64,000 nucleotides of DNA from an uncultured virus (IMG/VR IMGVR_UViG_3300005805_000085) (taxonomy: Duplodnaviria; Heunggongvirae; Uroviricota; Caudoviricetes): IMG/VR virus record IMGVR_UViG_3300005805_000085, positions 1,963 to 65,962 of that record, one strand, 5' to 3'. The translations under genes and the position numbers were made by a program. Each line of letters starts with the position of its first letter. The stretch's first letter is position 1. Below, piece by piece: positions 955 to 57,331 of the stretch. Under the pieces are notes generated by a model. That model worked only from the letters and a program-made list of their open reading frames with translations, ran no database searches and was not told the origin of the DNA.

Positions 955-1241
955 ATAGTTTGGGAAATGCGATAAAGCGCACAAACAGAGTCCACTTAGC
1001 CAACTACAAGTGTCGATAACCTAAGTACGAGACTCAAGTTTGATTCCCAAACTATCCCACTTCAGAAAAGCAGCAGTTAGTTACTGCTAGCAGATGGTAA
1101 TATTGGTCTGTAGTTTTATGATGTCTGGCTCTGACCGGTCCCTAATGTCAAGTACCTGTGGGCAGTAACTCCAGAGAACGCACTTACGGGAATCAACCAG
1201 ACCCTAAACCAAGGCAATCCCAACCATCGTTGCTGCTTTTC
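955..1241 (+). ncRNA. Two stem-closed structured RNA domains (955-1055, 1065-1241), unknown family
   Basis: ATAGTTTGGGAA/TTCCCAAACTAT (12 bp), GAAAAGCAGCA/TGCTGCTTTTC (11 bp), inner AGTTACTGCT/GGCAGTAACT. Confidence 0.6.
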
Positions 1242-1246
1242 ACCCT

Positions 1247-1334
1247 ATTCCTCTGATGAGCTCACCAAGAGCGAAACCCAAACCAGGAAAGCTAGTGCCC
1301 CATGCCTAGGTGAGTACGGTTTAGGGTCAGGAAT
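1247..1334 (+). ncRNA. Type I hammerhead ribozyme
   Basis: Stem I ATTCCT/AGGAAT; core CTGATGA; stem II GCTC-accaa-GAGC; GAAA; stem III CCCAAACC/GGTTTAGGG; GUC cleavage triplet (cut after C1328). Confidence 0.9.
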
Positions 1335-1336
1335 CG

Positions 1337-1370
1337 AGCTCCTACAGCGCAAGTTGTAGGAGCTTTTTTA
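1337..1370 (+). terminator. Rho-independent terminator
   Basis: AGCTCCTACAGC-GCAA-GTTGTAGGAGCT followed by a T-run. Confidence 0.85.
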
Positions 1371-1387
1371 TTTGCTCCGGCGCCAAT

Positions 1388-1417
1388 ATTATACAGTGGT
1401 AAACCTTTATGTGTCAA
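1388..1417 (-). promoter_or_regulatory. Leftward sigma-70 promoter antisense to the ncRNA cassette
   Basis: TTGACA-N18-TATAAT followed by ATTGGCGCC. Confidence 0.7.
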
Positions 1418-1482
1418 GAGCAAATTTGTTGGGGTTCTGACCCTAAGCCAGAGCAAGTCGGTACAATTTACGCCCGCAAAAC

Positions 1483-1521
1483 AAAAACCCCCAAAGCCGC
1501 ATAGGTTTTGGGGGTTTTTTC
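1483..1521 (-). terminator. Terminator (bidirectional-type)
   Basis: AAAAACCCCCAAAGCC...GGTTTTGGGGGTTTTT. Confidence 0.8.
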
Positions 1522-1534
1522 TGATTACTACGGT

Positions 1535-1846
1535 TTAGGGTCGGTTATTCTTGGATAATTCCCGTTCTATGACCTCGAGCACACCTTTATTGACCTTTTC
1601 TAGACTTTCTAGGAGTTCAAGGTTCATGTTGAGCAGTAGGGCGATCCGTTCGATGTACTCCGACTTCTTGCGTGGAACCTCACCACGTTTGTTTAGGTAC
1701 TGTTTTTTCTGGTACACCTCGAGCGAGCTGAGCTTGGCAATTATGCTACGTTGTGGCACTTGTAGCTCTTGAGCTAGTTGGTCCACTGAGACACCCTCTC
1801 GGTATCTTTGCACTAGACGGTCAGTAATTTCTTTAGTATATTTCAT
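1535..1846 (-). CDS. Second A2/D3-like HTH protein, paralogue of 584-892
   Basis: MKYTKEITDRLVQRYREGVSVDQLAQEL...RSIIAKLS...ESLEKVN aligns along its length with 584-892. Confidence 0.7.
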   Translation of the reverse strand: MKYTKEITDRLVQRYREGVSVDQLAQELQVPQRSIIAKLSSLEVYQKKQYLNKRGEVPRKKSEYIERIALLLNMNLELLESLEKVNKGVLEVIERELSKNNRP

Positions 1847-1850
1847 GTTG

Positions 1851-2633
1851 TTAGTCGTCCCATGGCATATCTGCGACTTTGACTTGTTTCGGACCCTCAA
1901 CCGCCGCAACCGAAAAAATCTCATCGGGTACTAGGGGTGTGGGCATCCTGTCCCACTGCCAGGGGTCTAAGATTAAGTAGGGTGTTCGTAGCTGTGGGTG
2001 GCAAACCCAGATTTGTGTAAGCATGGTGAGTACTAGTTTAGGCACTTCCCGCCAAGGTGAGTCTAAGCCTGTAAGTTGCCAAGTTGCTAGTGCTGATCTT
2101 TGTTGACCACTTCGTTGACCAGTTTTGATGGTTAAACCTCTGGTACGAACCTCTACGAGTTCATCCGACCCTAAACCGCTCCAGGTAGTATTTTCCTTAG
2201 CCCACCTCAAGCACTCGTAAAGATCTCGACTAATAATCCTGTCTAGGCCTTCCAGCGGCCACTGCTGGTAACCCACACCCCGATCTCGTTTTTGTGCTAG
2301 CATGATTGTGGGAGCTAGGGCGCTCCAATTTACACTCTGGGGGTCACTTTGACGACGAATCAATTTTGAACGGGGAACTCTACACACCAGTCTCCATAAA
2401 CCCAAATCCCAATCGCTGCAGATATTGATACGGAGCGTCTTGGGAATGTCTACCCTACCTTGGTCGTCTAAAATAAGATTCCACCGTTGGTAATGCCCCA
2501 CAATCTGAGGCCATAGCCAGCCTTCCTTAGTGATCAGTTGTTGTTCTGCAACCCAAGCCTCAAGCAGTTTAGGGTCAGTTTGGTTAGCGATTTCGTGGAG
2601 TGGAACTGCTTCCAGCTTATTTAGTTTTTGCAT
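1851..2633 (-). CDS. Hypothetical Trp-rich protein with acidic C-terminal tail (ADMPWDD)
   Basis: 260-aa ORF downstream of promoter 2871-2899. Confidence 0.75.
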   Translation of the reverse strand: MQKLNKLEAVPLHEIANQTDPKLLEAWVAEQQLITKEGWLWPQIVGHYQRWNLILDDQGRVDIPKTLRINICSDWDLGLWRLVCRVPRSKLIRRQSDPQSVNWSALAPTIMLAQKRDRGVGYQQWPLEGLDRIISRDLYECLRWAKENTTWSGLGSDELVEVRTRGLTIKTGQRSGQQRSALATWQLTGLDSPWREVPKLVLTMLTQIWVCHPQLRTPYLILDPWQWDRMPTPLVPDEIFSVAAVEGPKQVKVADMPWDD

Positions 2634-2715
2634 CGAGTTTTAGCGTAAAATAGGGGTATAAAAATTTATTATAATTTGTATAAAAGAAAACAATTCGCCA
2701 AATTATTTATTTGGA

Positions 2716-2840
2716 GTGATTAACACCTCTAGTTTTAAACACAACTGCACTAGGCTTACTGGGCCTCCGGGAACCCTCGTTGGAATCGTCCCAGGTCCTG
2801 CATAGCTTTGTGCAGTTGTTTTAAACTAGGGTTTAATCAC
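2716..2840 (-). ncRNA. Long imperfect hairpin in a 5' leader (ncRNA or DNA cruciform)
   Basis: GTGATTAA..CTAGTTT..ACAACTGCAC pairs with GTGCAGTTGT..AAACTAG..TTAATCAC. Confidence 0.5.
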
Positions 2841-2870
2841 CAATTGTTTAATCTCTTTAGATATAACAAT

Positions 2871-2899
2871 ATTATATCATACTTTTTTGTGTTTTGCAA
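2871..2899 (-). promoter_or_regulatory. T5-type sigma-70 promoter
   Basis: TTGCAA-N17-TATAAT on the minus strand. Confidence 0.8.
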
Positions 2900-2922
2900 G
2901 CGTATTTTTATCAGTGCTTAGG

Positions 2923-3117
2923 TTAATCTTCATGTTGGACCCTGACATAGCAATCTGTGTACATTGGGGTACTGGTGAATACGTAAACTTCTCGGTGGGG
3001 AAACATCTGGTTAAAATAAAGTTTAACCTGTTCGGTGTTGATGGGGGTGTGGTCTAGGTTCTTGACCCACCAGGTGTTGTGGTTAACGACTTCGATAAAC
3101 TGGGGAGGGTTATTCAT
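2923..3117 (-). CDS. Hypothetical protein
   Basis: Coupled ORF in the minus-strand early operon. Confidence 0.55.
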   Translation of the reverse strand: MNNPPQFIEVVNHNTWWVKNLDHTPINTEQVKLYFNQMFPHREVYVFTSTPMYTDCYVRVQHED

Positions 3118-3292
3118 GGCGGTCTTCCTGGAAGTCAAACCACTCATCTAGTTCACTCCATATCGCTTGATAAATTTCGGTATGGATTTGGAGTTCAGTA
3201 GGATTATCTTGGTGCTTATGTGCACGTTGCCAGCCAAGCTGAATGCCGGTTTCAATGCACTGGTCTAGTACGGGAATGGTTTTAGGAGTCAT
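3110..3292 (-). CDS. Hypothetical protein
   Basis: Overlapping start/stop with neighbours. Confidence 0.65.
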   Translation of the reverse strand: MTPKTIPVLDQCIETGIQLGWQRAHKHQDNPTELQIHTEIYQAIWSELDEWFDFQEDRHE

Positions 3293-3486
3293 TATGCGCT
3301 CAAATCAAAGTTAGAGGGATATACAATCTGGTAGAGTTGGTCATAGGCTTTACCGATCTGGCCACTCTCCATGAGTTGGAGAATTTTTTCTAGTTCGTGT
3401 TGTTGGACTGTGTAGATGGCTTCGGTGATTTGGGTTTGCCATAGATTGGTGTCGAAGTTGGGTTTTTTATAACTATCATCCCACAT
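3292..3486 (-). CDS. Hypothetical protein
   Basis: GGAGAGG RBS before ATG 3486. Confidence 0.6.
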   Translation of the reverse strand: MWDDSYKKPNFDTNLWQTQITEAIYTVQQHELEKILQLMESGQIGKAYDQLYQIVYPSNFDLSA

Positions 3487-3757
3487 AGTGGTACCTCTCC
3501 AAAATAGTACGGATACAATCGCTAATAGCATTTAGTTCTACAGTAGCTTGTGGTTCTTGTAGATGTTGCATAGGTAAGAGGGCCAGCTGGGTAGCACAGT
3601 CACGAGCGACCAGTTGTACTAGATGTTTAACACACTCCTGCTGGTACTGGTCTAGCTCATCCCAGCCGCCTTGGGCGATAAGTCCGCTGTTGTAAAGTAA
3701 GTCTTCAAAGGGATGGTGTGGAAAGTCTATAGGATTTGTGGTGTTTGTCTGGTGCAT
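3476..3757 (-). CDS. Hypothetical protein (start uncertain)
   Basis: ORF within the operon. Confidence 0.55.
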   Translation of the reverse strand: MHQTNTTNPIDFPHHPFEDLLYNSGLIAQGGWDELDQYQQECVKHLVQLVARDCATQLALLPMQHLQEPQATVELNAISDCIRTILERYHYVG

Positions 3758-3926
3758 CGTTTGCCTCGTCATCAGGTATTCGTTCGCCATAGGGGTCAAT
3801 AATATCAAATCGTTTACCGCACTGCTTACACCACCACCAAGACCAGCCTAGGCCGTTGTAGTGGAAAAGCTTTTGGCCGGTGTGGTTGTTAGGTGGACAT
3901 GGAGTTCTGTCTAAGTTTAGTTTCAT
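3705..3926 (-). CDS. Hypothetical small Zn-ribbon-like protein
   Basis: C..H and CKQC motifs; ATGA overlap. Confidence 0.55.
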   Translation of the reverse strand: MKLNLDRTPCPPNNHTGQKLFHYNGLGWSWWWCKQCGKRFDIIDPYGERIPDDEANDAPDKHHKSYRLSTPSL

Positions 3927-4234
3927 TTGTCAACTCCAAACTGGTCTTTAATGAGTTTAGCTAAAGTCCAACCCCTAATATCCGGATTACGAGCAGCTAT
4001 ACTAGCACATTCCAGAATAATCAACTCGGCGAACTTTTCTGAATAGTAATCAACCCACCTATTCATATCTTTTTCAAAATAATCGGTATCCAAGTTGGTT
4101 GTGATAGCGGCCTCAATAGCAAGTTCTCGAATCAATAGGTTCATTTGGGGTTTTACCTCAACCGGACCACACACGTGTGCATAGTCCCATGTAGGATCAA
4201 ATTGACCACATTTGTGGCATTGTATAAGCTGCAT
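3923..4234 (-). CDS. Hypothetical protein
   Basis: CHKC..HVC N-terminus; EKFAELIILEC motif common in aquatic phages. Confidence 0.65.
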   Translation of the reverse strand: MQLIQCHKCGQFDPTWDYAHVCGPVEVKPQMNLLIRELAIEAAITTNLDTDYFEKDMNRWVDYYSEKFAELIILECASIAARNPDIRGWTLAKLIKDQFGVDK

Positions 4235-4236
4235 AC

Positions 4237-4446
4237 CTACTCCTTGTAGTGTGCAAGCATATTAAGTGCCTCTAGCTGACCCCAAGTCAGAGCAAATCTC
4301 TGCCCGTCTAGTTCGCAGTCAAATCCCTCGCCGTTCTGCCATTCTGTCAGGTAGAGCTGCTTGTTCTCGCTTAGATAGCAGTACTTGTCTAGGTCTAGTT
4401 CACGTGTAGTAACTTGGTAGGTTTTAATCACAAAAATATGCCTCAA
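4237..4446 (-). CDS. Hypothetical protein
   Basis: ORF within the operon. Confidence 0.6.
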   Translation of the reverse strand: MRHIFVIKTYQVTTRELDLDKYCYLSENKQLYLTEWQNGEGFDCELDGQRFALTWGQLEALNMLAHYKE

Positions 4447-4648
4447 ATTGGTGTTTGTGGATTAGACATTTAAACCACACAGTATGTTCGTAGACGTTGG
4501 TCCACTCACGAATGTGCCACTGGTGTTGGGGAACATTTTCTCGTAACCAGTGTTTTACTGGTCTGAGCAAATCACTGTGGAATGGAGCTTGATACGCTTG
4601 GGGAATCCACCTCTGCTTATAGCTCCACTGTTCTTGCGGCGTCATCAT
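4424..4648 (-). CDS. Hypothetical protein
   Basis: AAGGA RBS, first gene after promoter 4674-4702. Confidence 0.65.
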   Translation of the reverse strand: MMTPQEQWSYKQRWIPQAYQAPFHSDLLRPVKHWLRENVPQHQWHIREWTNVYEHTVWFKCLIHKHQFEAYFCD

Positions 4649-4673
4649 ATGTCCTTTTCTCAAATTATATAAT

Positions 4674-4702
4674 ATTATAGCACAAACAAAAAGGGCATTC
4701 AA
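4674..4702 (-). promoter_or_regulatory. T5-type sigma-70 promoter
   Basis: TTGAAT-N17-TATAAT. Confidence 0.7.
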
Positions 4703-4737
4703 CACAAAAATAATTGTGGTGAATGCCCCAGTGGTAT

Positions 4738-5391
4738 TTATGATTTAATTTTTTGCCTGTAGTATTGAGTACAAGCTAGTTGTACAGCAACTAGGACAGG
4801 CAGTATCCCAACAACCCAACGATCTAGTGCTTGCAGCCAGTTAGCTAAGATTGGCTCATCAAGGATCATTTTGGTAGCTACTAGGTATAACACACCAGCT
4901 CCCCAATATACTAGCCACGGTCTATGCTCTAGGTGTTCTTGAATCCAAGTGGCCCCCCACACAATAATGGGTACACTAATTAGGAGACCTAGGATAATAA
5001 GTAGCCAACTGCCACCACTTGCCCCCGCAATAGCTAGGCTATTGTCTAGACCCATGGTAAAGTCAGCTAGTACAATGGTAGTAATGGCTCCGAACAGTGT
5101 AGTTTTACCCTCAACTGCAGCACTCTCTTGATGTTGGCCTAGCCGCCAAGCAATCCACACCAGTGCAAGTCCGCCTACCAGCCGTAAGCCTGGAATAAGG
5201 AGCAGCCATGCTAAGATAACTACACAGACGAATCGGGCTACCACCGCTCCTACTGTACCCCACAAAATAGCCTTACGCTTTAGGTCTAGTGGCAGGTTAC
5301 GACTAGCTAGTGCAATTACTAGTGCATTTTCACCGCCTAGTACAATGTCGATAAGGATGATGGTGACTAGTGCTAGGAAAAATTCCATCAT
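4738..5391 (-). CDS. TerC-family (YjbE-like) integral membrane protein
   Basis: IILIDIVLGGENALVIALASRNLP, ADFTMGLDNSLAIAGA, GLLISVPIIVWGA. Confidence 0.9.
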   Translation of the reverse strand: MMEFFLALVTIILIDIVLGGENALVIALASRNLPLDLKRKAILWGTVGAVVARFVCVVILAWLLLIPGLRLVGGLALVWIAWRLGQHQESAAVEGKTTLFGAITTIVLADFTMGLDNSLAIAGASGGSWLLIILGLLISVPIIVWGATWIQEHLEHRPWLVYWGAGVLYLVATKMILDEPILANWLQALDRWVVGILPVLVAVQLACTQYYRQKIKS

Positions 5392-5723
5392 AGCTGAATC
5401 CAGTCAATTTCGTCTTTGTACCAGACACACTCTAGTCCATCATACTCATGAATAAAAAACTTGCGATGCCGGTCGGTCCAGCAGACTTCAAGTTCTTGTA
5501 TGTCTTCTATGCTAATATTATCAAGAAGTACAGTACCCTCTTGGTTAGCAATCTCCGTTACAAGGTCTATGGCATCTTCCCAAACCCCCTCATCAACAGC
5601 CCTGCATAGTTCAGCATCCACACAAAGTCGCCAGATATAATGGTAGGTAAACCAGCCGGTACCATATCCTCGGGTGATTAGTACCCCAACCTGCCCCTGT
5701 TCGTTAGTATAGTAATTACCCAC
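5388..5723 (-). CDS. Hypothetical phage protein
   Basis: VLITRGYGTGW...EYDGLE pattern. Confidence 0.7.
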   Translation of the reverse strand: MGNYYTNEQGQVGVLITRGYGTGWFTYHYIWRLCVDAELCRAVDEGVWEDAIDLVTEIANQEGTVLLDNISIEDIQELEVCWTDRHRKFFIHEYDGLECVWYKDEIDWIQL

Positions 5724-5955
5724 GATATGCCCACTCCTTAATCTTGAGTCTAGCTAGTTCGAGCGCTTCCTCACACTGGGGAAGTGGTCCCGCATAACTA
5801 TTAGCAATAATTTGATCAACTTGTTCTACCAGTTGGTTAACAAACCAGTCTACTGGGCTCATATTAATTGGGGCCGCTAGTTGAGATTTAACCCAGAGGT
5901 CCCAAACCCCTTCACTTATATGCTGAACTTGATTGCTCACTGCAATGCCATCCAT
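5716..5955 (-). CDS. Hypothetical protein (start uncertain)
   Basis: ORF within the operon. Confidence 0.55.
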   Translation of the reverse strand: MDGIAVSNQVQHISEGVWDLWVKSQLAAPINMSPVDWFVNQLVEQVDQIIANSYAGPLPQCEEALELARLKIKEWAYRG

Positions 5956-6106
5956 GTTGAGTTTTGATTACTACACCACCGCGGGTAAAGCAGTCTTGGT
6001 GTGGGTCTAGGTGATATTTAATGGTGTTAGCTACATATGCTAGTGTGACCAGCACAAACATACCAATTAGTGTCCAGTGTAGTATGGTTTTATTTTCTTC
6101 GTTCAT
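5912..6106 (-). CDS. Hypothetical membrane protein
   Basis: N-terminal TM helix, C..RGG...C. Confidence 0.6.
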   Translation of the reverse strand: MNEENKTILHWTLIGMFVLVTLAYVANTIKYHLDPHQDCFTRGGVVIKTQHGWHCSEQSSSAYK

Positions 6107-6321
6107 ACCGTTTCCATGTTGTGGTATTTGCCAAGACCCTTGAGCAGTTCAGGATTAATAATAGGCTGATAAGCACCTTTAGCAAGGGGAACTACGCAGT
6201 GTGTTTGCTGGCGTGCTTTACGCTCGCCGCACACTAAACACAGCTTGCTGATGTAGAGATACCGCTCACGAGGCACATCATCCTGACACTGTGGATTAAC
6301 GCAGAAAAACATTGTAGTCAT
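6103..6321 (-). CDS. Small Zn-finger protein (DksA/TraR-like C4 pattern)
   Basis: CVNPQC..DVPRERY...CLVCGE. Confidence 0.55.
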   Translation of the reverse strand: MTTMFFCVNPQCQDDVPRERYLYISKLCLVCGERKARQQTHCVVPLAKGAYQPIINPELLKGLGKYHNMETV

Positions 6322-6348
6322 TGCCTTTTTTAATTTTGCAAAGAATAT

Positions 6349-6377
6349 ATTATACACAGTTAATCACACACAATCAA
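6349..6377 (-). promoter_or_regulatory. T5-type sigma-70 promoter
   Basis: TTGATT-N17-TATAAT. Confidence 0.7.
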
Positions 6378-6580
6378 GTGCGAATTCCTAAGGTTTGTTC
6401 TACTAGGAGTTTGCCCTCATCCGGGTTCAGGAATCGGCCCAAGCTATGACCACCAGCTGTAGCAATCCAGTCCCTACTATGCACACCAGGTCGCATAACC
6501 TGTGCCTGAATACGGTTCATTGTGTCTACAAGAATCCAAGTATTACCAAGTAGGATCTTCCAAGTAAGTTTTTCAGTCAT
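6374..6580 (-). CDS. Hypothetical protein
   Basis: Coupled ORF. Confidence 0.6.
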   Translation of the reverse strand: MTEKLTWKILLGNTWILVDTMNRIQAQVMRPGVHSRDWIATAGGHSLGRFLNPDEGKLLVEQTLGIRT

Positions 6581-6944
6581 TGCGATTCATTGCCTTTTTA
6601 AGCATATAAACAAGGTTATTAATAGTTTGCTTGTAGTTGTTAATACTAGCACGCTGACCCGGTAACCAGTCAGGTCTAAGTGTAAGTGCTAGCTCGTCGT
6701 CTTGTGTAACAATAATAGGTTTTTGAGAGCCATCCGACCAGCGCAGCCTGTAACACTCTAGGACCACAGTTTTGGGTTGATGTGGGGTAGTGGGGTCTGC
6801 ATCAGTTATCCACTGGGTAGTTGGGGGTTCTTGTACCGCTACACGTACTCTGCCCTGCTTTTCCATTTGTTCGATTAACCAGACCGGCAAGTCAAGGATT
6901 GTGATAGGCTCAAAGTCTTTGGTATAAAGTACTATATTCACCAC
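6573..6944 (-). CDS. Hypothetical protein
   Basis: Coupled ORF of 123 aa. Confidence 0.7.
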   Translation of the reverse strand: MVNIVLYTKDFEPITILDLPVWLIEQMEKQGRVRVAVQEPPTTQWITDADPTTPHQPKTVVLECYRLRWSDGSQKPIIVTQDDELALTLRPDWLPGQRASINNYKQTINNLVYMLKKAMNRND

Positions 6945-7717
6945 AATCTCCTGTAGATGTCAACTACACGATGTAGCTGCTGCTTATCTTCAACTAGGTA
7001 GGCTACCTCTAGCCGGTTAAGCTTAGCAAGCATATGATCAACTCGAGCACGAGTAGCCTCGTCATAATCTTTATTTAGAATACCTAGACCCTTTTGACTT
7101 GCGGTCCACTCGGTCCAGCCAGTAACCTCGTAGGGATCAGGCCGGTTGGGGCGGGCTTCGGTCCACCATAGGTAGAGCTCTTTAAGCTCACGAGCGGCAT
7201 GAGACTGATCTGGGCTTTCGTCGCCGAGTTGGATCTCCCAGTCTAGGTAGTCTAGGCCTGCTTGCCTACACCGCCAGCCGCGGGGGTAAGGCCACCGAAA
7301 CATCCACCACGGAGTGTTATACTTGATACGGCTATCCTTATCCCAACGTACTTGATCTAGCGCTTTGTCAATCTCCACAAAGTCGACCAGCTCGCTCATT
7401 ACACACGGCAGAAGGCGGTCACAGAAATCCCAGCCTGTTCCGGGTCGAATGTGTTCTTTATGTGCGCGAAGCACGTGATTAGGTCTTTGCCAACGCGTGT
7501 ACACCCAGTATACTAGGTTATCAATCCGGTCCGGAACCCAATGGATAGCAGCTTGTACATTATCTAGAAGTGTTTCAGCAATCCAGTAGCGAAGGGGACG
7601 CTTGGCCTTAGCTTCCTCATGCCAGCTATCCCAAGCACCCCACTCTAGGGCTGTGGGCTTAGGTGTACCACGAATCCGATCCGCTAGTGTGGTACAAGAC
7701 CAGTAGTGGGCTCTCAT
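6938..7717 (-). CDS. Hypothetical Trp-rich phage protein
   Basis: 259-aa ORF; ELKELYLWWTEARPNRPDP. Confidence 0.8.
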   Translation of the reverse strand: MRAHYWSCTTLADRIRGTPKPTALEWGAWDSWHEEAKAKRPLRYWIAETLLDNVQAAIHWVPDRIDNLVYWVYTRWQRPNHVLRAHKEHIRPGTGWDFCDRLLPCVMSELVDFVEIDKALDQVRWDKDSRIKYNTPWWMFRWPYPRGWRCRQAGLDYLDWEIQLGDESPDQSHAARELKELYLWWTEARPNRPDPYEVTGWTEWTASQKGLGILNKDYDEATRARVDHMLAKLNRLEVAYLVEDKQQLHRVVDIYRRLW

Positions 7718-7917
7718 TATGCTTTACTCCAGGTATGTGCAATCTTAACAAAAACACCAGCAATACACAACAACCAAGCTCCCGTAAACTTTTGTGAATC
7801 CCAGTTTAAGATAATAGTATGGTCAAACATAATTAGTGTCCATAAGTCAACAATACCTATTAGTATGGGCAAGAAAAACAAAAAAGCTATTAAATTAAAT
7901 AGAACATTTTTTACCAC
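7717..7917 (-). CDS. Small membrane protein
   Basis: GTG overlapping the thyX stop; two hydrophobic segments. Confidence 0.5.
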   Translation of the reverse strand: MVKNVLFNLIAFLFFLPILIGIVDLWTLIMFDHTIILNWDSQKFTGAWLLCIAGVFVKIAHTWSKA

Positions 7918-8810
7918 TTTGCTTCTCCTGGAATAAGTTTGCGGTACTGAACCCAACCACAAAAGTTGCCAGACCATAATTGCCCATACCTGTCTTGATG
8001 CGATACACCGATACGTTCTAGAGTATCCCACTGCGTAATAGGAGTAGCCTGATGTTCAACTGGGCTAGCGTGTGCTGGTTTAGATTCTACTAATTGATCA
8101 TAGATACGAATAGCCTTGTCTAGTGAAGTGTCCTGACGGCGATAACTTACTTGTGCACAGCAACTAGCACTAATCTTGATAGCGTCGGCCAGCTTGATCT
8201 CTAGGCCTGTTTGCTCATCAATAAACATTTGAGTATGATTAGCTGCTCGAGTTGTACGAACATAAGGCAGATGCCATTCTTCTGGGTGAAGTGCTTGTGG
8301 CTGCGATTCCTTGTAGAGTATATGCATTTGGTGGGCAAGCTCCTTAAACTCAGGCTGTGCCATCTCATGATCTCGTAGCCAAAAAAAGTTTTCCCATTCT
8401 GTTGCAGTTACTACAGTTTTAACAATCTGAAACGGCTCTGTAAGCCGGTTAGTAATCTGCTTGTGTACATCAAAATCTGCTAGTAACCTACTGTAGCGAA
8501 TTGCGCTATCTCTAGCCTCCATCCAAGTTAACCTAGCATAGTTTTGCATATCTGGCAGTATTTCTTCATCTGCTTGCATCCCTGCTTTATTCTGACCCCA
8601 AACCGCAGGAACCGCAGTATTGTCACGAATATGTTCGTGCATTTTTTGTACAGGAATTGCTCGTGAACTAGCTGTATTGCGCGATAGCATACGGTGAGTA
8701 TTAAACTCAGCTAGGATGAATCTGGGATACTCAATTTCAAATGTAGTAATTCTGGACTTAGTGGGAGTATATACACTGTCCTTGATAATAGTAGCTTTTA
8801 TATTGCTCAT
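7911..8810 (-). CDS. thyX: Flavin-dependent thymidylate synthase
   Basis: AEFNTHRMLSRNTASSRAIP, phage-type ThyX motif; HASPVEHQATP. Confidence 0.9.
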   Translation of the reverse strand: MSNIKATIIKDSVYTPTKSRITTFEIEYPRFILAEFNTHRMLSRNTASSRAIPVQKMHEHIRDNTAVPAVWGQNKAGMQADEEILPDMQNYARLTWMEARDSAIRYSRLLADFDVHKQITNRLTEPFQIVKTVVTATEWENFFWLRDHEMAQPEFKELAHQMHILYKESQPQALHPEEWHLPYVRTTRAANHTQMFIDEQTGLEIKLADAIKISASCCAQVSYRRQDTSLDKAIRIYDQLVESKPAHASPVEHQATPITQWDTLERIGVSHQDRYGQLWSGNFCGWVQYRKLIPGEAKW

Positions 8811-8811
8811 T

Positions 8812-9237
8812 TTAGTGGTAAAATGTGTGCCGACCTATTGTAGCCAGCTTGCGATGTTGCCAGCGTGGGCGAACTGTATGATTGTGAAAGTATAGTGCAG
8901 GAAAGTGTCTGGCATACTCATGTGCAAACTCTTGTGCAATAAGTGCTACTAAGATGCTATCATTCCAAGCTATGGTATCAGTTATCCTAAGATGCTTGTT
9001 ACCAGTCCAGTGAAACTGTCCGGGTTGATAAACTACTTTACAAATAGTTTTAGGAAACTGCCAATGCTTAGTACGATTTATGGTAGTTATTGCTACTGCC
9101 ATTTTACCCTGCCAAGGTTCACCGCGGGCTTCGTGGTAAATATTACGAGCCAAGCACTGTGTTTCTGAATCCGTAGGCTTTGCCCAAGCACTGCCAATTA
9201 GCACTGCGCCACACAACACAACAAAAAACTTTTTCAT
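8812..9237 (-). CDS. Cell wall hydrolase, SleB/Hydrolase_2 family
   Basis: Signal peptide; CLARNIYHEARGE, VVYQPGQFHW, ALYFH, IGRHTFY. Confidence 0.9.
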   Translation of the reverse strand: MKKFFVVLCGAVLIGSAWAKPTDSETQCLARNIYHEARGEPWQGKMAVAITTINRTKHWQFPKTICKVVYQPGQFHWTGNKHLRITDTIAWNDSILVALIAQEFAHEYARHFPALYFHNHTVRPRWQHRKLATIGRHTFYH

Positions 9238-9276
9238 TTGAGCCCCCTTGGTGGATTGCTCAAATCACACACTAGT

Positions 9277-9423
9277 TTAGTCTACAATTTGCCATACTTG
9301 CCAGTTCTTTCGTTGAATTCGGTTAAGATCAATTCGATTCTTGTAACAATGCAGCCACGCGTCTAGATAGAATAGGAATTCGTTAGCTAGAAGCGGCACT
9401 TTGTCCATTTTTACGATTTGCAT
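9277..9423 (-). CDS. Small hypothetical protein (48 aa)
   Basis: MQIVKMDKVPLL...WQIVD downstream of promoter 9489-9517. Confidence 0.45.
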   Translation of the reverse strand: MQIVKMDKVPLLANEFLFYLDAWLHCYKNRIDLNRIQRKNWQVWQIVD

Positions 9424-9488
9424 TTTTGGTGTGATTTGGTAAAGGTTATTAATGGGTTCTAGCCTAAAAAGTAATGACTAGATTATAT

Positions 9489-9592
9489 ATTATACTCTAT
9501 CAACAAAAATAAATCAAGTCTGAAATATAACCAGGTCCTTGATGGGCAATAAAAATTTTGTGTTGCGCAAGGTTCTGCTAGAGTGCTATAAT
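9489..9592. promoter_or_regulatory. Divergent promoter pair at the strand switch
   Basis: Minus TTGATT-N17-TATAAT (9489-9517); plus TTGCGC-N18-TATAAT (9563-9592). Confidence 0.7.
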
Positions 9593-9616
9593 TATAAAAA
9601 TTGTGGAGGATTTACT

Positions 9617-9799
9617 ATGCAAACAGATTACACTAAAAATCTAGAACAGGTTATTAGACAAGAATTGCTTCCTACGTATTTAAAGTATAATAGAGAACAT
9701 ACCATAGAAACTAGTCCTAAAGTAAATGAACTTATAGAAACACTTGCGGTTCGTCGTGAACAGCAGGTTCCAGCACTGTTTAAACCACCAAAAAAGTAG
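9617..9799 (+). CDS. Hypothetical protein
   Basis: GGAGGA RBS before ATG 9617. Confidence 0.65.
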   Translation: MQTDYTKNLEQVIRQELLPTYLKYNREHTIETSPKVNELIETLAVRREQQVPALFKPPKK

Positions 9800-9801
9800 C
9801 G

Positions 9802-9830
9802 TTGACATAATCTTCCACAAATGCTATAAT
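9802..9830 (+). promoter_or_regulatory. Consensus sigma-70 promoter
   Basis: TTGACA-N17-TATAAT. Confidence 0.85.
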
Positions 9831-10037
9831 ATTACTTTGCGTGGTGTTCAAGGATTTGACCACGAACTGCTAGTTGCAAGAAACAACTCAAATGCCTTAA
9901 TCCACTATATAATCTGGGCCGTACACGGCTCAGAGGTACAAGTTGGATGCTACACTATAAGTCCTGTGTACAGGTAAGTGTGTTCCCGCGGCCAAGTTCT
10001 CCTACGAGACTTGGCCGCCTTTGTCTATACTATAACC

Positions 10038-10493
10038 ATGACAACTATAAATTTTACACAAACACCACTATATTCGCAAGAAGAAGTAGACAAAATGAAA
10101 CAGGCTATAGAAACAAATCAGTTTTTTGGGCCTGGCTGGAGTAAGCCTACTTGGAAAGAAGTCACACCAAAGCTACAAGGTACTGCATTAAAGTATGACA
10201 GCCATAAGGCCCCTATGAGCCTGCTGAGCAGTGAAGCACTACATCAAACTGCTATGGTACTAGCCTTCGGCAAAGACAAATACGCTGCACATAATTGGCG
10301 TGGCGGATTTGAGTGGTCCCGTCCCCTTAGTGCAGCACTACGCCACATCTTAGCGTTTCAAGACGGTGAAGATCGTGATCCTGAATCGGGACTAAGCCAC
10401 CTAGCTCACGCTATGTGTTGCATTATGTTCCTCCTAGAATTTGAAAAAACACACCGTGAACTCGATGACCGCTGGAAGCCTGAAACTAAGTGA
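10038..10493 (+). CDS. dATP/dGTP diphosphohydrolase-domain protein (DUF5664)
   Basis: KYDSHK..VLAFGKDKYAAHNWRGG..AALRH..DPESGLSHLAHA. Confidence 0.85.
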   Translation: MTTINFTQTPLYSQEEVDKMKQAIETNQFFGPGWSKPTWKEVTPKLQGTALKYDSHKAPMSLLSSEALHQTAMVLAFGKDKYAAHNWRGGFEWSRPLSAALRHILAFQDGEDRDPESGLSHLAHAMCCIMFLLEFEKTHRELDDRWKPETK

Positions 10494-10692: not shown

Positions 10693-10696
10693 AACA

Positions 10697-10771
10697 CTGG
10701 CCGTCGTTCAACGGATAGGACAGCATTCTTCTAAAGTGCGAATGGGGGTTCGATTCCCTCCGGCCGGGCCA
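10697..10771 (+). tRNA. tRNA-Arg(UCU)
   Basis: Cloverleaf, GCATT-ct-TCT-aa-AGTGC, encoded CCA. Confidence 0.9.
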
Positions 10772-10783
10772 TAAATTCCTATC

Positions 10784-10812: not shown

Positions 10813-10841
10813 ATTTATTCAATAATCAAACTGAGACAATC

Positions 10842-49093: not shown

Positions 49094-49716
49094 TAGCCTC
49101 CTAGTATGTGTAAGGCGTGCTCGTAGTGTTTTTTACGATCTTCTATGCCTATTGTACCACCATTAATTCGTTTTGTCAAGGTTAAAATATCCCCTTGGTC
49201 TGCCCAACGATTTAAGCTATTAGTTTCCCAAAACCAGCATGCACTTTGAGCAGCTCCTTCAAAGGTTTCTAGGTAATCTGCTGCTTCTTCTGGTTTGATT
49301 TCTATGCTGTGAGCAAACCAAGTATAATTGTCTTTACCAGTTAGCTGAATAAGTCCACGACCCCGGTATCGCCAACCATCGCCTGAAGCCTCATCACCAT
49401 TACCCATACGATTAGCATATACTCGGTTAGCTATTGCTTCTTGCTTATTAGGTTTACCAGCATATTGTTGCGCTAGTTCATCTGTAGGAAAGTATTTTGG
49501 AAATACCTTGCGTAGGCTTTGCCAACGATAGTTAAGATTTTCTTGTAGGACTGTAAACTCAGCCGACTCATGTGCACACTGTGCAATCCAAGCTGCTTGA
49601 CGTAGTGGAGTGTTAATCTCGTAATCTGGAAATAGTTGATTGATAACTTGTAACCAATAACTTGTATACTTATTTCGTGGTATTAATTTTTGTAATTGTT
49701 CTAGGGTTAGGGTCAT
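49093..49716 (-). CDS. Endolysin, glycoside hydrolase family 19
   Basis: AQCAHES, ENLNY, YRGRGLIQLTG, RINGG..G..DR. Confidence 0.93.
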   Translation of the reverse strand: MTLTLEQLQKLIPRNKYTSYWLQVINQLFPDYEINTPLRQAAWIAQCAHESAEFTVLQENLNYRWQSLRKVFPKYFPTDELAQQYAGKPNKQEAIANRVYANRMGNGDEASGDGWRYRGRGLIQLTGKDNYTWFAHSIEIKPEEAADYLETFEGAAQSACWFWETNSLNRWADQGDILTLTKRINGGTIGIEDRKKHYEHALHILGG

Positions 49717-53891: not shown

Positions 53892-53900
53892 AATTAACTC

Positions 53901-54161
53901 CTATTGTGGAGGTTGTGGCCAAACTATGTTATATGGATAGTTAGTTTGTTTAGTAATATCTCGTAGTGCTTGCCTGTATATAGCCCATGCTTCACGATCA
54001 ACTGGAGCGTCGGGTAGTTGAGTCCAATCTGATTCTTTAAGACGATAATTTCTAATACTTTTTATCATCTCTTCATTTGATAGTGCAACTGATGAATTAT
54101 CAATGCGCTTACTATTAAGAAGCGTTTGTATTTCCATTTGTTCTTTATATGTTAATTTCAT
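53901..54161 (-). CDS. Tail fibre assembly chaperone
   Basis: RN..L..SDWTQLPD..W..YRQALRDI..WP..P. Confidence 0.85.
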   Translation of the reverse strand: MKLTYKEQMEIQTLLNSKRIDNSSVALSNEEMIKSIRNYRLKESDWTQLPDAPVDREAWAIYRQALRDITKQTNYPYNIVWPQPPQ

Positions 54162-54169
54162 ATAGTTCC

Positions 54170-55081
54170 TTATACTGAAATATATGGATAAAAAGTAATT
54201 CCATTAGATGTTATAATATTATCAAGTTTAGGCAATACTCTTAAAATTGGATCAGCCGTAAAAGGAATTCCTTGAAGTCCTATAGTTTTTATATTTCCCA
54301 CATTACCAGTAAAAGAAGTCATATAAAATCTATAGTGTGTATATTCTACAAGATTATTTACGGTCTGTATAATTCCATTTTGAGCAGAACTACTGTAGCC
54401 TGAATATGTTTGAATTGTTGTATAAGTTATACCGTCTATAGAGCCTTGAAACTCAAAAGCATCAAGAAAGTTATTACTTATACATAATATAGCAAATTTA
54501 TTAATTACTACAGGATATGGAAATTTATATCCCCATATCCAGGGAGGCGCATAATAAGCTCCGGAATCCCAATTTTGACCATAAGTTAATACTGGAATTA
54601 TTGCTCCAGTGCCTTTTGGATAAGTTCTACCACCAAATGTATAAGCTGTAGTACCAAACATACTATCAGTTGAAGCAAAAGTTTCGCCTGGGCCATAACC
54701 AAAATCTGGTAAATCTGCGGGATCCGCCCCAGTCATTGTTGAAAATATTCCTATTCCTCCACTAAACGAGTTAACAGTTGGTAATTCATCTAAATTGGGA
54801 TAAGTGACGCTTGATACAATAGATCCATTACATGCTAACATTCCGGCTGGAGGAGTTGATTGTACATACCATTGAACTCGTTTTAATAGTCCACTCGATG
54901 TTCCAGAACTACCAGTTGGTCCAAGAAAAGCAGAACTCAAATTACTCCATGTTTGATTTTGTCCACCTATTCGTACAACTTTTGTTGTAGTGTCATACCC
55001 AATTTCACCAGAAGCTAATGTTGGATTTGTAGCACTCCATTGTGCTGTAGTTCCTTTTCTTAAGTATAATAATGTTGGCAT
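54170..55081 (-). CDS. Tail fibre/RBP: Mtd-N domain + collar + discoidin-like insert (copy 3)
   Basis: LRKGTTAQWSATNPTLASGEIGY; P.GMLACNG; FEFQGS.DG. Confidence 0.75.
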   Translation of the reverse strand: MPTLLYLRKGTTAQWSATNPTLASGEIGYDTTTKVVRIGGQNQTWSNLSSAFLGPTGSSGTSSGLLKRVQWYVQSTPPAGMLACNGSIVSSVTYPNLDELPTVNSFSGGIGIFSTMTGADPADLPDFGYGPGETFASTDSMFGTTAYTFGGRTYPKGTGAIIPVLTYGQNWDSGAYYAPPWIWGYKFPYPVVINKFAILCISNNFLDAFEFQGSIDGITYTTIQTYSGYSSSAQNGIIQTVNNLVEYTHYRFYMTSFTGNVGNIKTIGLQGIPFTADPILRVLPKLDNIITSNGITFYPYISV

Positions 55082-55082
55082 A

Positions 55083-55940
55083 TTAAGTCTTTATATATGG
55101 ATATAATATTTGATTTAAAGGAGAAACTGTTATAGAAGATAAAATAGGTAAAAATTTAAATCCACTTGTTGCATTAAGGGAGATTTTAAATCCCATTCTG
55201 GCAATTCCTATATCAGTGGAGTAACCAACATCGTGTTTTACCTGTACTATATATGTATCTGCTACTACAGATGTACTAAAACTATACCAATTAGGAGTAA
55301 CACCACTATTATAGCCACCTATCTGTGCCCATGTACCTGCTGCACCAGCAACAACAGTACCTCCAATAGATCTTATTTCCCATGCTGAAGGTGGCGCACC
55401 AAAACCAACACTAAGCATAGTTATGGCGCTTAATATAACAGGTTGACTAAATGTTATAGAAAAAGCATCTATAAATTGTCCGGAAGAAACATAATTACTT
55501 AAATATGCTCCATCATTATAATAATTTCCAACAGTTGTATAATCAAAAATACCAGTTGTTGGAAGCCAAGTTGCTGGATAATATCCACTAGTCGATATAC
55601 TTGTTGGTGTAGTTATTGAAGTAATACTAGCCGGTAAAAATGCGGTTAAATCTGGATAAGAACTACTAGCTATTTCTAATCCATTTGCTGATAACCACCC
55701 ACTGGGTGCACTAGATGTTGGCATATATGATAAGGCACCAGTTGATGCTGAACTTATTCCCGTTGTACCAGTTGTTCCCTGAGTACCTCCATAGGTTAAT
55801 GAATTCCAAGGAGTAATACCATCACCAATTTTTATTTTATTAGTATCAGTTTCTACTGCAAGTTCCCCATTAGCTAAAATTGAATTAGCACTGGACCACT
55901 GAGATGCCGTTCCTCGTCTTAATTGAATTTTAACAGGCAT
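55083..55940 (-). CDS. Tail fibre/RBP: Mtd-N domain + collar + insert (copy 2)
   Basis: IQLRRGTASQW..KIKIGDG..WNSL; PSGWLSANG. Confidence 0.78.
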   Translation of the reverse strand: MPVKIQLRRGTASQWSSANSILANGELAVETDTNKIKIGDGITPWNSLTYGGTQGTTGTTGISSASTGALSYMPTSSAPSGWLSANGLEIASSSYPDLTAFLPASITSITTPTSISTSGYYPATWLPTTGIFDYTTVGNYYNDGAYLSNYVSSGQFIDAFSITFSQPVILSAITMLSVGFGAPPSAWEIRSIGGTVVAGAAGTWAQIGGYNSGVTPNWYSFSTSVVADTYIVQVKHDVGYSTDIGIARMGFKISLNATSGFKFLPILSSITVSPLNQILYPYIKT

Positions 55941-55943
55941 AAT

Positions 55944-56861
55944 TTAAACCTTTATATGTGCATAAAGCGATACACCACTAGTATTAATAGTTGGCAAATC
56001 TGGTAATACTAGAACAGAGGGATCTTCAGCTACAGCGGGCCCAACCATAGCTAATTCAGAAAGAGCAATATATCCATATCCAGCATTATTAGTATAAAAT
56101 ACTAGTCTATATTTTGTATATGGTGTTGAGTTACCAGAAGAATACGCTGACATCTCTGCAGTACTTAAACTAGTGCTGAAGCTATATGTTGGATACTGAC
56201 CATACAAAGCTTGTATAATTGTCCAATTAATACCATCATTCGATCCCTGAAACTCCCAACCTGTTGGTATCCAACTACCACTTCTTGCTGTCATAAAATA
56301 ACCAGTAATTACAACTGCAGTTGGAAAATTATATTGTACCCAAGTTCCAGGCATGTCCGAATTACTGTGCCATACTGGAGCATCATACCCGTGATTAGGG
56401 TCCCAAGATCCTTTGCCCTCTGTTAAGTTTTGTATACCAGTAGAATAAGCATATTGATCAGTCTCTAATGTTGAACTAACTGTAATATTTATTCCTAAAG
56501 AATTTGCAGTGCCAAATTGAGCACCAACACCTCCAGGAAATCCCGGTTTAGACGGTAATTTACCAACTAAGTTTGGATAAGAACTAGCAGGTATTTGTCC
56601 GCCATCACATCTGAGCCAACCTGAAGGTGCAGTAGATTGTCTACTATATTGTATAGATCCGGCAGTATCTGTACCTGTTCCATTGGCTCCAGTACCCCCT
56701 GGTATACCTGCATATGATAGAGAATTCCAAGTAGTACTACCATTTCCAATCTTAAATCTTCTAGTATTAAGTTCTATTCCGATTTCACCGGCTGCTAATA
56801 CGGGATTTGAGGAACTCCATTCAAGCGAAGAACCTCTTCTAAATTGTGTTATTGACGGCAT
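55944..56861 (-). CDS. Tail fibre/RBP: Mtd-N domain + collar + discoidin-like insert (copy 1)
   Basis: QFRRG..GEIG.E..KIGNG; PSGWLRCDG; WEFQGSNDG; LPDL. Confidence 0.78.
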   Translation of the reverse strand: MPSITQFRRGSSLEWSSSNPVLAAGEIGIELNTRRFKIGNGSTTWNSLSYAGIPGGTGANGTGTDTAGSIQYSRQSTAPSGWLRCDGGQIPASSYPNLVGKLPSKPGFPGGVGAQFGTANSLGINITVSSTLETDQYAYSTGIQNLTEGKGSWDPNHGYDAPVWHSNSDMPGTWVQYNFPTAVVITGYFMTARSGSWIPTGWEFQGSNDGINWTIIQALYGQYPTYSFSTSLSTAEMSAYSSGNSTPYTKYRLVFYTNNAGYGYIALSELAMVGPAVAEDPSVLVLPDLPTINTSGVSLYAHIKV

Positions 56862-57331
56862 TATGTAACTCCTCCACCATCTACTACCGGTGTACTAGTA
56901 TAATCACTACTTGGTGTTCCTCCATCTATATTTATATTACTACTAAGTAACGCACCATTATTATATATATTACCAGTAAAATTTATAGAACCACCAATAT
57001 TTAATTTATATGCTGAATTATCACTAATATTACCTATAACAACATTACCACTATATTGTGCAAGTTTAACCAGTCCGGTATCTAAGACCTCTATGCTGGG
57101 TATGCCCGACACGTCATTTACACTATAAATAGTTCCGGTTAGTGTATTAGTTACGCTAAATAACTGTCCAGCACTACCCTCAAGGCTAATAGTGCCGCTA
57201 CTAGTAGGATACACACGTAAGGTAATTGTTTGTGGGCCTAGGGTGCTGCTTGCTCCAACAAACTCAATTTTAGGGTCGGCAGTTTGACTCCGATTAGGGG
57301 TAATTAAAATATTCTTATCAGACAAGGCCAT
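56861..57331 (-). CDS. Tail-associated protein
   Basis: GSAGQLFSV..SVNDVSGIPSIEV. Confidence 0.7.
   Translation of the reverse strand: MALSDKNILITPNRSQTADPKIEFVGASSTLGPQTITLRVYPTSSGTISLEGSAGQLFSVTNTLTGTIYSVNDVSGIPSIEVLDTGLVKLAQYSGNVVIGNISDNSAYKLNIGGSINFTGNIYNNGALLSSNINIDGGTPSSDYTSTPVVDGGGVT

Follow-up and report, generated by a model that had tools for sequence, protein, structure and literature searches.

A clade-wide asymmetric word at early promoters, coding positions and a dense array of T5-like phages, a candidate recognition site for a multi-helix-turn-helix protein

L5-type repressors, as set out in a passage of PMC9283540, bind as monomers to more than 20 asymmetric sites that are located in promoters and within transcription units and are oriented with transcription. 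Dispersed words of another kind are nick sites, the T5 consensus being R/GCGCRGG and phage tf carrying a 9-mer nick consensus 14 times in its 46 kb (both from an excerpt of PMC3517423). We analysed a 64,000-nt stretch of the uncultured virus IMGVR_UViG_3300005805_000085 (positions 1,963 to 65,962 of its IMG/VR record; hereafter the window), which by gene content belongs to a T5-like phage and in which a short word, the 9-mer GACCCTAAA with the core 8-mer GACCCTAA, is strongly over-represented. The word is non-palindromic (asymmetric), with 18 dispersed copies in the window, and we favour, tentatively, the reading that it is the recognition site of a phage multi-helix-turn-helix (HTH) DNA-binding protein, which would control early promoters and occupy intragenic sites in the manner of L5 operators and stoperators.

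The original prediction, made from the letters of the window alone, had listed 12 positions and strands for the 9-mer, and all 12 proved exact (8 on the plus strand and 4 on the minus strand); 0.42 copies were expected (maximum 3), and none of 100 dinucleotide-preserving shuffles got to 12. The sequence CGACCCTAAACCG, which it reported as recurring three times, was indeed present at 1534 (minus), 2167 (plus) and 39487 (plus). The core 8-mer was found 18 times versus 1.19 expected under an order-3 Markov model, the copies beyond the 9-mer set starting at 1439, 14900, 36603 and 39625 on the plus strand and at 49707 and 56395 on the minus strand. In the same order-3 ranking, taken over all 65,962 bases of the contig, it came first among the 8-mers and GACCCTAAA topped the 9-mers, both outranking the promoter word TATAATATT; the first 1,962 bases of the contig, outside the window, contained no copy. 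Since allowing one mismatch gave only 35 sites versus 14.8 expected, the word is sharply defined. No report of it in phages was found among the literature matches listed. The copies are distributed as follows.

1200-1208, plus strand: 9-mer copy (GACCCTAAA) within a non-coding RNA (ncRNA) gene, part of an 11-nt perfect complement of 1318-1328
1320-1328, minus strand: 9-mer copy, read on the plus strand as UUUAGGGUC, which corresponds to the GUC cleavage triplet together with the 3' strand of predicted hammerhead stem III
1439-1446, plus strand: 8-mer copy (GACCCTAAG), 21 bp upstream of the -35 box of the minus-strand promoter P2, reverse-upstream class
1534-1542, minus strand: 9-mer copy, its TAA forming the stop codon of the small HTH gene at 1535-1846 (minus)
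2167-2175, plus strand: 9-mer copy, antisense within the open reading frame (ORF) at 1851-2633 (minus)
2568-2576, minus strand: 9-mer copy, sense, Asp-Pro-Lys, in the same ORF at 1851-2633 (minus)
10786-10794, plus strand: 9-mer copy over the -35 box TTGACC of an early-type promoter, 15 nt after a tRNA-Arg gene and upstream of a phosphoesterase gene
14900-14907, plus strand: 8-mer copy, sense, Asp-Pro-Lys
20259-20267, plus strand: 9-mer copy over the -35 box of an early-type promoter, 17 nt after a tRNA-Trp gene
23544-23552, plus strand: 9-mer copy, sense, Asp-Pro-Lys, in a 60-aa ORF
24206-24214, plus strand: 9-mer copy, sense, Asp-Pro-Lys, in a C5-methylase-like gene
28239-28247, plus strand: 9-mer copy in the promoter spacer of the ligase/D5-like/helicase/primase/polymerase operon, 5 nt before TATAAT (extended -10, TGnTATAAT)
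36603-36610, plus strand: 8-mer copy, sense, in the helicase gene, a position gained or lost among relatives
39487-39495, plus strand: 9-mer copy in the SbcD-like gene, retained with changing flanks by the majority of 50 related loci
39625-39632, plus strand: 8-mer copy in the SbcD-like gene, Asp-Pro-Asn
49707-49714, minus strand: 8-mer copy over the start/stop junction ATGACCCTAA
56395-56402, minus strand: 8-mer copy, sense, Asp-Pro-Asn, in a tail-fibre-like gene
57269-57277, minus strand: 9-mer copy, sense, Asp-Pro-Lys, in a late-region gene

Enrichment was real under every null used. For coding DNA we took 79 ORFs of at least 240 nt, defined by a simple longest-ORF rule with no trained gene finder, and shuffled either the order of codons within each ORF (keeping codon usage) or synonymous codons among identical residues (keeping the proteins). 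The 8-mer occurred 9 times in these ORFs versus 0.86 (codon-order) and 1.62 (synonymous) copies expected, and the 9-mer 5 times versus 0.34 and 0.86. This was the codon-preserving comparison on which the original prediction had proposed to let its claim stand or fall, and the enrichment persisted, as none of 1,000 shuffles reached either coding count. The 13.6 kb of non-coding DNA held 9 copies of the 8-mer (0.41 expected) and 7 of the 9-mer (0.15 expected), matched in none of 500 dinucleotide shuffles, and the enrichment under ORF shuffles was repeated in four complete or near-complete relatives.

The word was also conserved across the clade. The window encodes a set of replication and metabolism genes (a split NAD-dependent ligase, a D5-like regulator, a DnaB-type helicase, primase, PolA, SbcCD-like proteins, a flap nuclease and ribonucleotide reductase) together with tail genes. 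A megablast of window positions 1-6000 against known phages gave no match, and the nearest named relatives were Vibrio phages, at 48% PolA identity; at least 256 relatives were detected in IMG/VR, of which the 80 kept show 73%–99% PolA identity. Counting the word in related phages, as had been proposed, gave values above those for a reversed control word in 15 of 15 related records searched (5-26 copies each), with word/control counts of 21/3, 19/1, 20/4, 26/4 and 17/6 in the first five records, 9/5, 10/3, 16/1, 10/3 and 24/6 in the next five, and 24/6, 5/0, 8/0, 10/1 and 11/3 in the last five; the weakest of the 15 was G006 (9/5). The excess over the control persisted down to approximately 75% PolA identity, and relatives of roughly 98 kb carried 17-26 copies each, of which approximately 12-15 per genome lay outside the cluster described below, at conserved coding positions. 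In the 80 polymerase-centred loci (1.28 Mb), we counted 308 forward and 2 reverse copies versus 69 copies of the control word on both strands. The 308 copies collapsed to 31 position classes, several of them kept in 26-52 loci, and all 31 were co-oriented with the local gene. Since a prior of approximately 10% antisense copies gives P ~0.04 for 0 of 31, this orientation is modest extra evidence. In every complete relative the strand of the copies flipped with gene blocks, the flip falling at the mid-genome convergence point.

In five arbitrary bacterial genomes, word counts were no higher than those of the control, and in a scan of genome contigs with ThyA the matches came from scattered taxa and did not exceed 49% identity, except for a single fragment of 49 residues (65%). 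A DNA methylase target was considered and set aside, as the only methylase gene is absent from five of seven relatives (present in G001 and G003) and all seven keep the word. Of the genomes compared, G000, G001 and G003 alone have that gene, a short C5-cytosine-methylase-like gene at 23717-24316 (plus; Pfam, 27.6 bits).

We then considered whether the coding copies reflect a peptide. Among the 12 coding 8-mer copies in the window, 10 are in the sense orientation and in the frame GAC-CCT-AAx, and the original prediction had cautioned that several of them read Asp-Pro-Lys. That caution was correct, and codon choice and synonymous conservation indicate that the frame is a consequence of the motif and not its cause. 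The tripeptide occurs 9 times in the window versus approximately 2.6 predicted by composition, and GAC-CCT is used in 9 of 11 Asp-Pro-Lys/Asn tripeptides, whereas codon usage (GAC, 36.5% of Asp codons; CCT, 37.8% of Pro codons) predicts approximately 14%. In an SSB-like gene, most of 78 related loci retain GACCCT amid synonymous variation in the surrounding codons; the SbcD-like gene preserves the word plus ACCG across related loci as flanking residues change; and in the helicase gene the word has been gained and lost repeatedly at one position among relatives. From these comparisons, the constraint acts on nucleotides rather than on the peptide, and a functional Asp-Pro-Lys peptide is ruled out by the codon choice and synonymous conservation. 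Of the chance copies in the shuffles, approximately 10% were antisense, 65% sense in frame 0 and 25% sense in frame 2. Codon usage thus favours this frame, and a nucleotide signal located in genes would take on the frame, and much of the strand bias, as a by-product. For the same reason, we rejected a frame-specific translational signal, the sense frame-0 excess being equal to the codon-usage prior. Proximity to start codons was also rejected: 21 of 63 dispersed sites fell within -60 to +90 versus 13.3 ± 3.2, a weak effect among sites that are not independent. The case shows a nucleotide signal masquerading as a peptide motif.

The most telling evidence came from promoters. Three copies had been placed within promoters by the original prediction, and all three are located in sigma70-type promoters, those at 10786 and 20259 over the -35 box TTGACC and that at 28239 in the spacer. 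Across ten records, 21 of 197 strong promoters (sigma70-type, with at least 11 of 12 consensus matches) carried a copy within -75 to -10, versus 4.0 expected under uniform placement. Three placement classes were distinguished: forward over the -35 box (TTGACCCTAA, 17-bp spacer, TATAAT), as at 10786 and 20259; forward within the spacer, with 5 nt left before an extended -10 box, as at 28239; and reverse, 12-26 bp upstream of the -35 box of very strong cluster promoters, as with P2 and the copy at 1439. In the ligase-operon promoter, the spacer copy was exact in 24 and had one mismatch in 8 of the 52 loci for which the ligase gene start was located (the other 20 rows include some that do not show this promoter), always 5 nt before TATAAT, and it was kept as the 3' half of the -35 box varied freely. 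The word-bearing promoters carry an ATATT discriminator, which in part of PMC7472727 is given as a mark of early promoters in T5. A generic promoter element was rejected, given that the matrix of sites described below has no -10 signal and that so few of the strong promoters carry the word.

Further structure was apparent in the flanks and in a dense array of copies. In a matrix of 312 distinct sites, in which homologous sites are counted repeatedly, position -1 was T and almost never G, +8 was a purine (93%), +9 a pyrimidine (82%), +10 never G, +11 G (54%) and +17 A (62%). The sites follow roughly yT-GACCCTAA-R-Y-H-G, with weaker flanks, and the cluster copies a longer form, roughly yCT-GACCCTAA-R-YYG-YAG-CAA (~22 nt). 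All four complete or near-complete relatives fetched whole contain an array of 6-11 copies of mixed orientation in 1-4 kb, adjoining small HTH genes. In the window, the cluster spans 1200-2576; there and in the relatives, most copies form convergent pairs (a plus copy followed by a minus copy), and opposite-strand copies are spaced only 51-120 bp apart. The mixed orientation and the ~22-nt consensus are what would be expected of a double-stranded protein site.

Protein binding was one of several options raised in the original prediction and is now the best supported of them, given the promoter placements, the conservation in all records searched and the array beside HTH genes; its binder is putative. 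Three candidates are encoded in the window.

584-892, plus strand: small single-module HTH protein (Pfam GcrA N-terminal domain, 28.5 bits; cut-off, 26.9)
1535-1846, minus strand: small single-module HTH protein, GcrA-like (25.0 bits, below the cut-off of 26.9)
30080-30826, plus strand: D5-like protein with four tandem HTH modules, encoded in the operon with the promoter copy at 28239, candidate binder

Four HTH proteins of one kind were present in all seven relatives compared. The D5-like protein is 77%–81% identical to its orthologues, as conserved as PolA (75%–78%), and the other three are 64%–74% (1535-1846), 63%–76% (the phrog_1725 DNA-binding protein, 26911-27276) and 50%–68% (584-892) identical. 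The D5-like protein consists of four tandem copies of the single HTH module of the small proteins, with near-invariant third helices, and its structural model has four three-helix bundles joined by flexible linkers (predicted local distance difference test score [pLDDT], 71; predicted template modelling score, 0.30). As modelled, the four modules would fit a ~20-bp site read by a monomer. Sequence searches of solved structures matched the GcrA DNA-binding domain only at E 0.15, and nothing for the D5-like protein. A 1979 paper on T5 D5 describes it in its title as a DNA-binding protein with effects on replication and on the expression of late genes.

Here we infer protein binding, the identity of the binder and the sign of its effect. 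The asymmetric, double-stranded GACCCTAA site would be read by a phage-encoded HTH protein, most likely the D5-like protein, covering ~20 bp as a monomer, and the single-module paralogues (584-892 and 1535-1846) may compete with or assist it. Copies over the -35 box (10786 and 20259) and in the spacer (28239) would be operators that switch early promoters, the last governing the operon that contains the D5-like gene itself. Those upstream of strong promoters in the cluster (1200-2576) could tune the ncRNA hub located there, and the Asp-Pro-Lys copies in genes might be further binding points, either for nucleation or as roadblocks that are polar in the way of L5 stoperators.

By analogy, the system would work like the operators and stoperators of Cluster A mycobacteriophages (L5 gp71-type repressors), with which it has in common a short asymmetric site present in approximately 20 or more copies per genome, some in promoters and others inside transcription units; the L5 protein moreover reads its site as a monomer, using more than one DNA-binding domain, according to part of PMC9283540. 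In such systems the monomer is an immunity repressor that stops both initiation and elongation. The present system is not a member of that family. The phage here is T5-like and apparently virulent and has an extra dense array of mixed orientation, most of its non-promoter copies are located in ORFs as Asp-Pro-Lys codons rather than in short intergenic gaps, and the candidate binder has four GcrA-like HTH modules instead of an HTH plus a stoperator domain. As to the L5 trait of orientation with transcription, the position classes are all co-oriented, codon usage alone predicts approximately 90%, and the cluster copies are mixed.

Several observations weigh against this L5-like reading. Only approximately 10% of strong promoters carry the word, and most copies lie deep within genes, where an operator role is not obvious. 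The promoter association could partly be a by-product, because a -35 TTGAC supplies five of the eight letters and the length of a spacer is in any case restricted. Given the codon-usage prediction, the co-orientation adds only weakly to the evidence, and the word is invariant across the clade, leaving no variation to covary with any protein. Fold matches of the D5-like protein were weak (none at E ≤0.001) and were to tandem HTH and winged-helix arrays, including the RNA-binding tandem winged helices of SelB, so that RNA binding is conceivable. The phage also looks virulent, whereas L5 is temperate.

A reading on the RNA level has the same weak SelB resemblance in its favour. Here GACCCUAA in transcripts would be bound by a phage RNA-binding protein or RNase, or would pair with the processed 3' end of the ncRNA, which, with its promoters and predicted ribozyme, has the following layout.

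920-1372, plus strand: ncRNA unit, with promoter P1 at 920-948, transcript from ~955 and an intrinsic terminator at 1336-1365 followed by a T run
1247-1334, plus strand: predicted hammerhead ribozyme, with stem I at 1247-1252/1329-1334, core CUGAUGA at 1253-1259, stem II at 1260-1272 and GAAA at 1273-1276
1276-1284/1318-1327, plus strand: predicted hammerhead stem III, with the 3' strand GGUUUAGGGU followed by C1328, the predicted cut falling after C1328
1388-1417, minus strand: promoter P2, a 12 of 12 consensus match, antisense to the 3' part of the ncRNA and kept in relatives, always with a reverse copy of the word upstream

P1 and P2 form a convergent sense/antisense promoter pair that is conserved in relatives. 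The ncRNA is roughly 375-415 nt long, is 84%–90% conserved among close relatives and folds better than shuffled sequence (z -3.7). Contigs from RNA sequencing runs matching window positions 1-11000 cover it among other regions; such contigs rank no expression and show no ends.

The predicted hammerhead has three stems, a GUC cleavage triplet and a stem III with a long insert, and its CUGAUGA ... GAAA core is also present in G001, G004 and G005. A pattern scan of IMG/VR returned hammerheads in 40 loci (34 distinct sequences), gathered with a pattern that fixes the core and, for most, the 3' strand. In an alignment of 31 sequences, stem II was 98% paired with compensatory changes at four of five pairs, stem III was 86% paired with compensatory changes at four pairs, and stem I was supported for only three invariant pairs; the covariation score was 0.276 versus 0.120 in shuffles (none of 500 reaching it) and at most 0.086 in slid controls. 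This element matched no Rfam family at its gathering threshold, the best score being to HH9 (20.1 bits, E 0.11, versus 52). The element resembles the hammerheads of Rfam clan CL00010, of which HH9 is nearest, in its core, three stems, GUC triplet and compensatory changes in stems II and III, and differs from them in that low score, in the long insert of stem III and in a 3' strand that in most lineages is the dispersed word. We found no report of a hammerhead in T5-like phages among the literature matches listed. Judged from the aligned sequences, one copy of the word is built into stem III of the ribozyme in most lineages, and the copy at 1320-1328 is the predicted cleavage site. Same-family hammerheads in L164, L209, L216, L201 and L210 have the cleavage strands ...CUGUGGGUC, ...CUGGGGGUC, ...UUUGGGGUC and ...UUUAGGGUA, and stem III covaries accordingly.

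The post-cleavage end of the ncRNA, ...CGGUUUAGGGUC, is complementary, with wobble, to GACCCUAA-R-YY-G, which favours pairing with dispersed sites, as do the sense strand of all the position classes in the replication module and the location of promoter copies in read-through intergenic RNA just after tRNA genes, with cluster promoters on both strands. The relatives argue otherwise. G003 has neither the hammerhead nor an anti-motif in the homologous RNA and keeps 20 copies of the word; the hammerhead of G011 cuts ACUGUGGGUC, yet that genome has 24 copies; and across G011, L209, L216, L201 and L210, hammerheads cut other words (ACUGUGGGUC, CCUGGGGGUC, UUUGGGGUC, UUUAGGGUA) as GACCCTAA clusters and dispersed copies are kept. 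The ribozyme strand of G004, GCAGCUUAGGGUC, does not pair with the A at position 9 of most dispersed sites. We therefore rejected the hammerhead 3' end as a general guide for dispersed sites, and the word appears independent of the ribozyme, because relatives without the ribozyme or with a different cut word keep it. The original prediction had suggested the RNA at 955-1328 as what the word targets; the RNA unit itself held up, with its promoter, terminator and covarying hammerhead, and the pairing failed on G003 and G011. Considering also that cluster promoters do not transcribe the reverse copies located upstream of them and that the sense bias is largely a codon effect, an RNA-level signal seems quite unlikely.

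The position of the cluster recalls T5 more directly. In the complete relative G001, the order is the small terminase subunit gene (start of the late block), a small-gene block of ~6 kb that holds a polynucleotide-kinase-like gene and two D5-like HTH genes, the ncRNA with the cluster, and the early region, a relative map position analogous to that of T5 Repeat Region 3 (iss), which in T5 is at the inner end of the long terminal repeat. The two regions have in common a repeated word of roughly 14 nt, a large untranslated region and a place beside pre-early-type genes, as far as T5 is described in part of the Davison preprint. It could accordingly be asked whether the cluster alone is a cis-acting DNA-transfer element, the counterpart of the T5 injection-stop region, with the dispersed copies secondary. 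The place of the G001 cluster between the post-terminase block and the early region would suit such an element, as would the eight same-strand GTCGGATTTGCACA copies in the annotated iss of T5 (L273, NC_005859; 9762-10487), next to its major nick, and several metagenomic contigs that end in or beside the cluster. Only 14 bp separate the last of these iss copies from that annotated nick, and a further GTCGGATTTGCACA copy was found at 12163. T5 itself has 0+1 copies of GACCCTAA in its first 50 kb; its DRD repeats are all on one strand, with eight of the nine GGATTTGCAC core copies of the first 50 kb in the iss, whereas the word of this clade is genome-wide and mixed in the cluster. DnaA boxes (TTWTNCACA), central in T5 according to part of the Davison preprint (bioRxiv 10.1101/866236), were absent from window positions 1-3000, which rules them out as components of the cluster, and numbered 8 in the whole window versus 8.9 expected. 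A terminal repeat and two-step transfer are only presumed for this clade, and the copies at conserved coding positions outside the cluster would be left unexplained, so that a transfer element offers an improbable account of the array.

Two further features of this region were observed. A 260-aa, all-helical protein encoded at 1851-2633 (minus) is fast-evolving (24%–41% identity among relatives), and its gene is always beside the cluster and always contains copies of the word; it matched no Pfam or PHROG family, and its model (pLDDT 69) matched no PDB fold at E ≤0.001. A near-perfect promoter series (CTTGACAC...TATGATAAAAT) with repeated upstream cassettes is present at 77,900-83,500 (minus) of G001 and at 33-62 (minus) of the window; it belongs to the small-gene block that separates the terminase gene from the cluster, where the ORFs with PHROG matches are on the other strand.

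The combination of a cluster and dispersed copies is likewise reminiscent of localized single-strand interruptions, as in T5, BF23, phiKMV-like phages and Pseudomonas phage tf, and the word could be the site of a phage nickase. Known nick sites are 7-9-nt words in 5-14 dispersed copies in phages with a ligase, one of the T5 sites being in the iss, and the size and copy number of the word fit. T5-like phages are moreover the classic nicked phages (in part of PMC10644984), the T5 record has its major nick in the iss repeat region and others dispersed, and the present phage has its own NAD-dependent ligase. In the excerpt of PMC3517423, however, T5 and tf sites are all on one strand, whereas here both strands carry copies and in relatives these flip with gene blocks; opposite-strand copies as closely spaced as those in the cluster would give a fragile duplex. 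The word bears no resemblance to R/GCGCRGG or TACT/RTGMC, the window genes included no recognisable site-specific nickase (the only endonuclease match being UvdE-like), and the fixed promoter placements would be unexplained. We consider a nickase site a slim prospect.

Alternatively, the word may be a polar signal for a machine that tracks along DNA: either a Chi-like 5'-TTAGGGTC-3' that restrains a nuclease (of the host, RecBCD/AddAB-type, or of the phage) coming in at one or the other end of the linear genome, or a replication signal such as a fork barrier or priming site. Like Chi, it is an over-represented, oriented 8-mer tolerated in particular reading frames, and its strand flips at the convergence point. 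In the RecBCD system, the protective orientation has Chi on the strand ending 3' at the end in question, and TTAGGGTC would likewise be on the strand ending 3' at the nearer presumed end; a direct terminal repeat serving both ends would need a mixed-orientation cluster. The reverse complement of the word also contains GGGTC, the recognition word of T7 primase. On the other side, no copies lie in the presumed pre-early block that separates the terminase gene from the cluster, so that a nuclease would remove this block before meeting a site, and the orientation bias is mostly explained by codon usage. Chi words belong to the host, in whose chromosome they are over-represented and strand-skewed, and are read in single-stranded form. 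The five arbitrary bacterial genomes showed no enrichment of the present word, its flanking consensus of 12-22 nt exceeds known Chi words, and its promoter placements are fixed. A polar signal is accordingly unlikely, if somewhat less so than a nick site. Comparably unlikely is a broader view, in which the word is a genome-wide, strand-polar 'self' mark of the T5-like clade read by a DNA-travelling machine. Candidates for that machine are a both-strand nickase, or a nuclease or translocase that spares or handles phage DNA during host DNA destruction or two-step transfer; the two-orientation array at the iss-like position would be its entry or stop point, and the hammerhead cut at one copy would tie the RNA to the word.

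Other features of the window were noted in passing. Approximately 20-22 tRNA genes mixed with small ORFs occupy 10697-25278 (plus), resembling the T5 tRNA region, and within this cluster is a permuted (two-piece type) transfer-messenger RNA (tmRNA) at 22355-22802 (plus) with the tag ANDETFALAA, matching Rfam tmRNA_permuted (116 bits) and beta_tmRNA (110 bits), which may hint at the host lineage. The early region also encodes a UvdE-type ultraviolet-damage endonuclease (12042-13043, plus) and a class II aldolase-like protein (41793-42440, plus), both unusual cargo for a T5-like phage.

In T5-like phages, the switch between temporal gene classes is described as unknown in part of PMC7472727, as is the function of the repeat-rich untranslated region that ends the T5 first-transferred DNA in part of the Davison preprint (bioRxiv 10.1101/866236). 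The clade described here is an unusually clean handle on both questions, with one invariant word, defined promoter positions and an iss-like array, and the word keeps conserved coding positions across genomes that are only approximately 75% identical in their polymerase. If the four-module HTH protein does read this word, the stoperator principle would extend from temperate actinophages to virulent T5-like phages, and the D5 class of proteins would gain a testable model.

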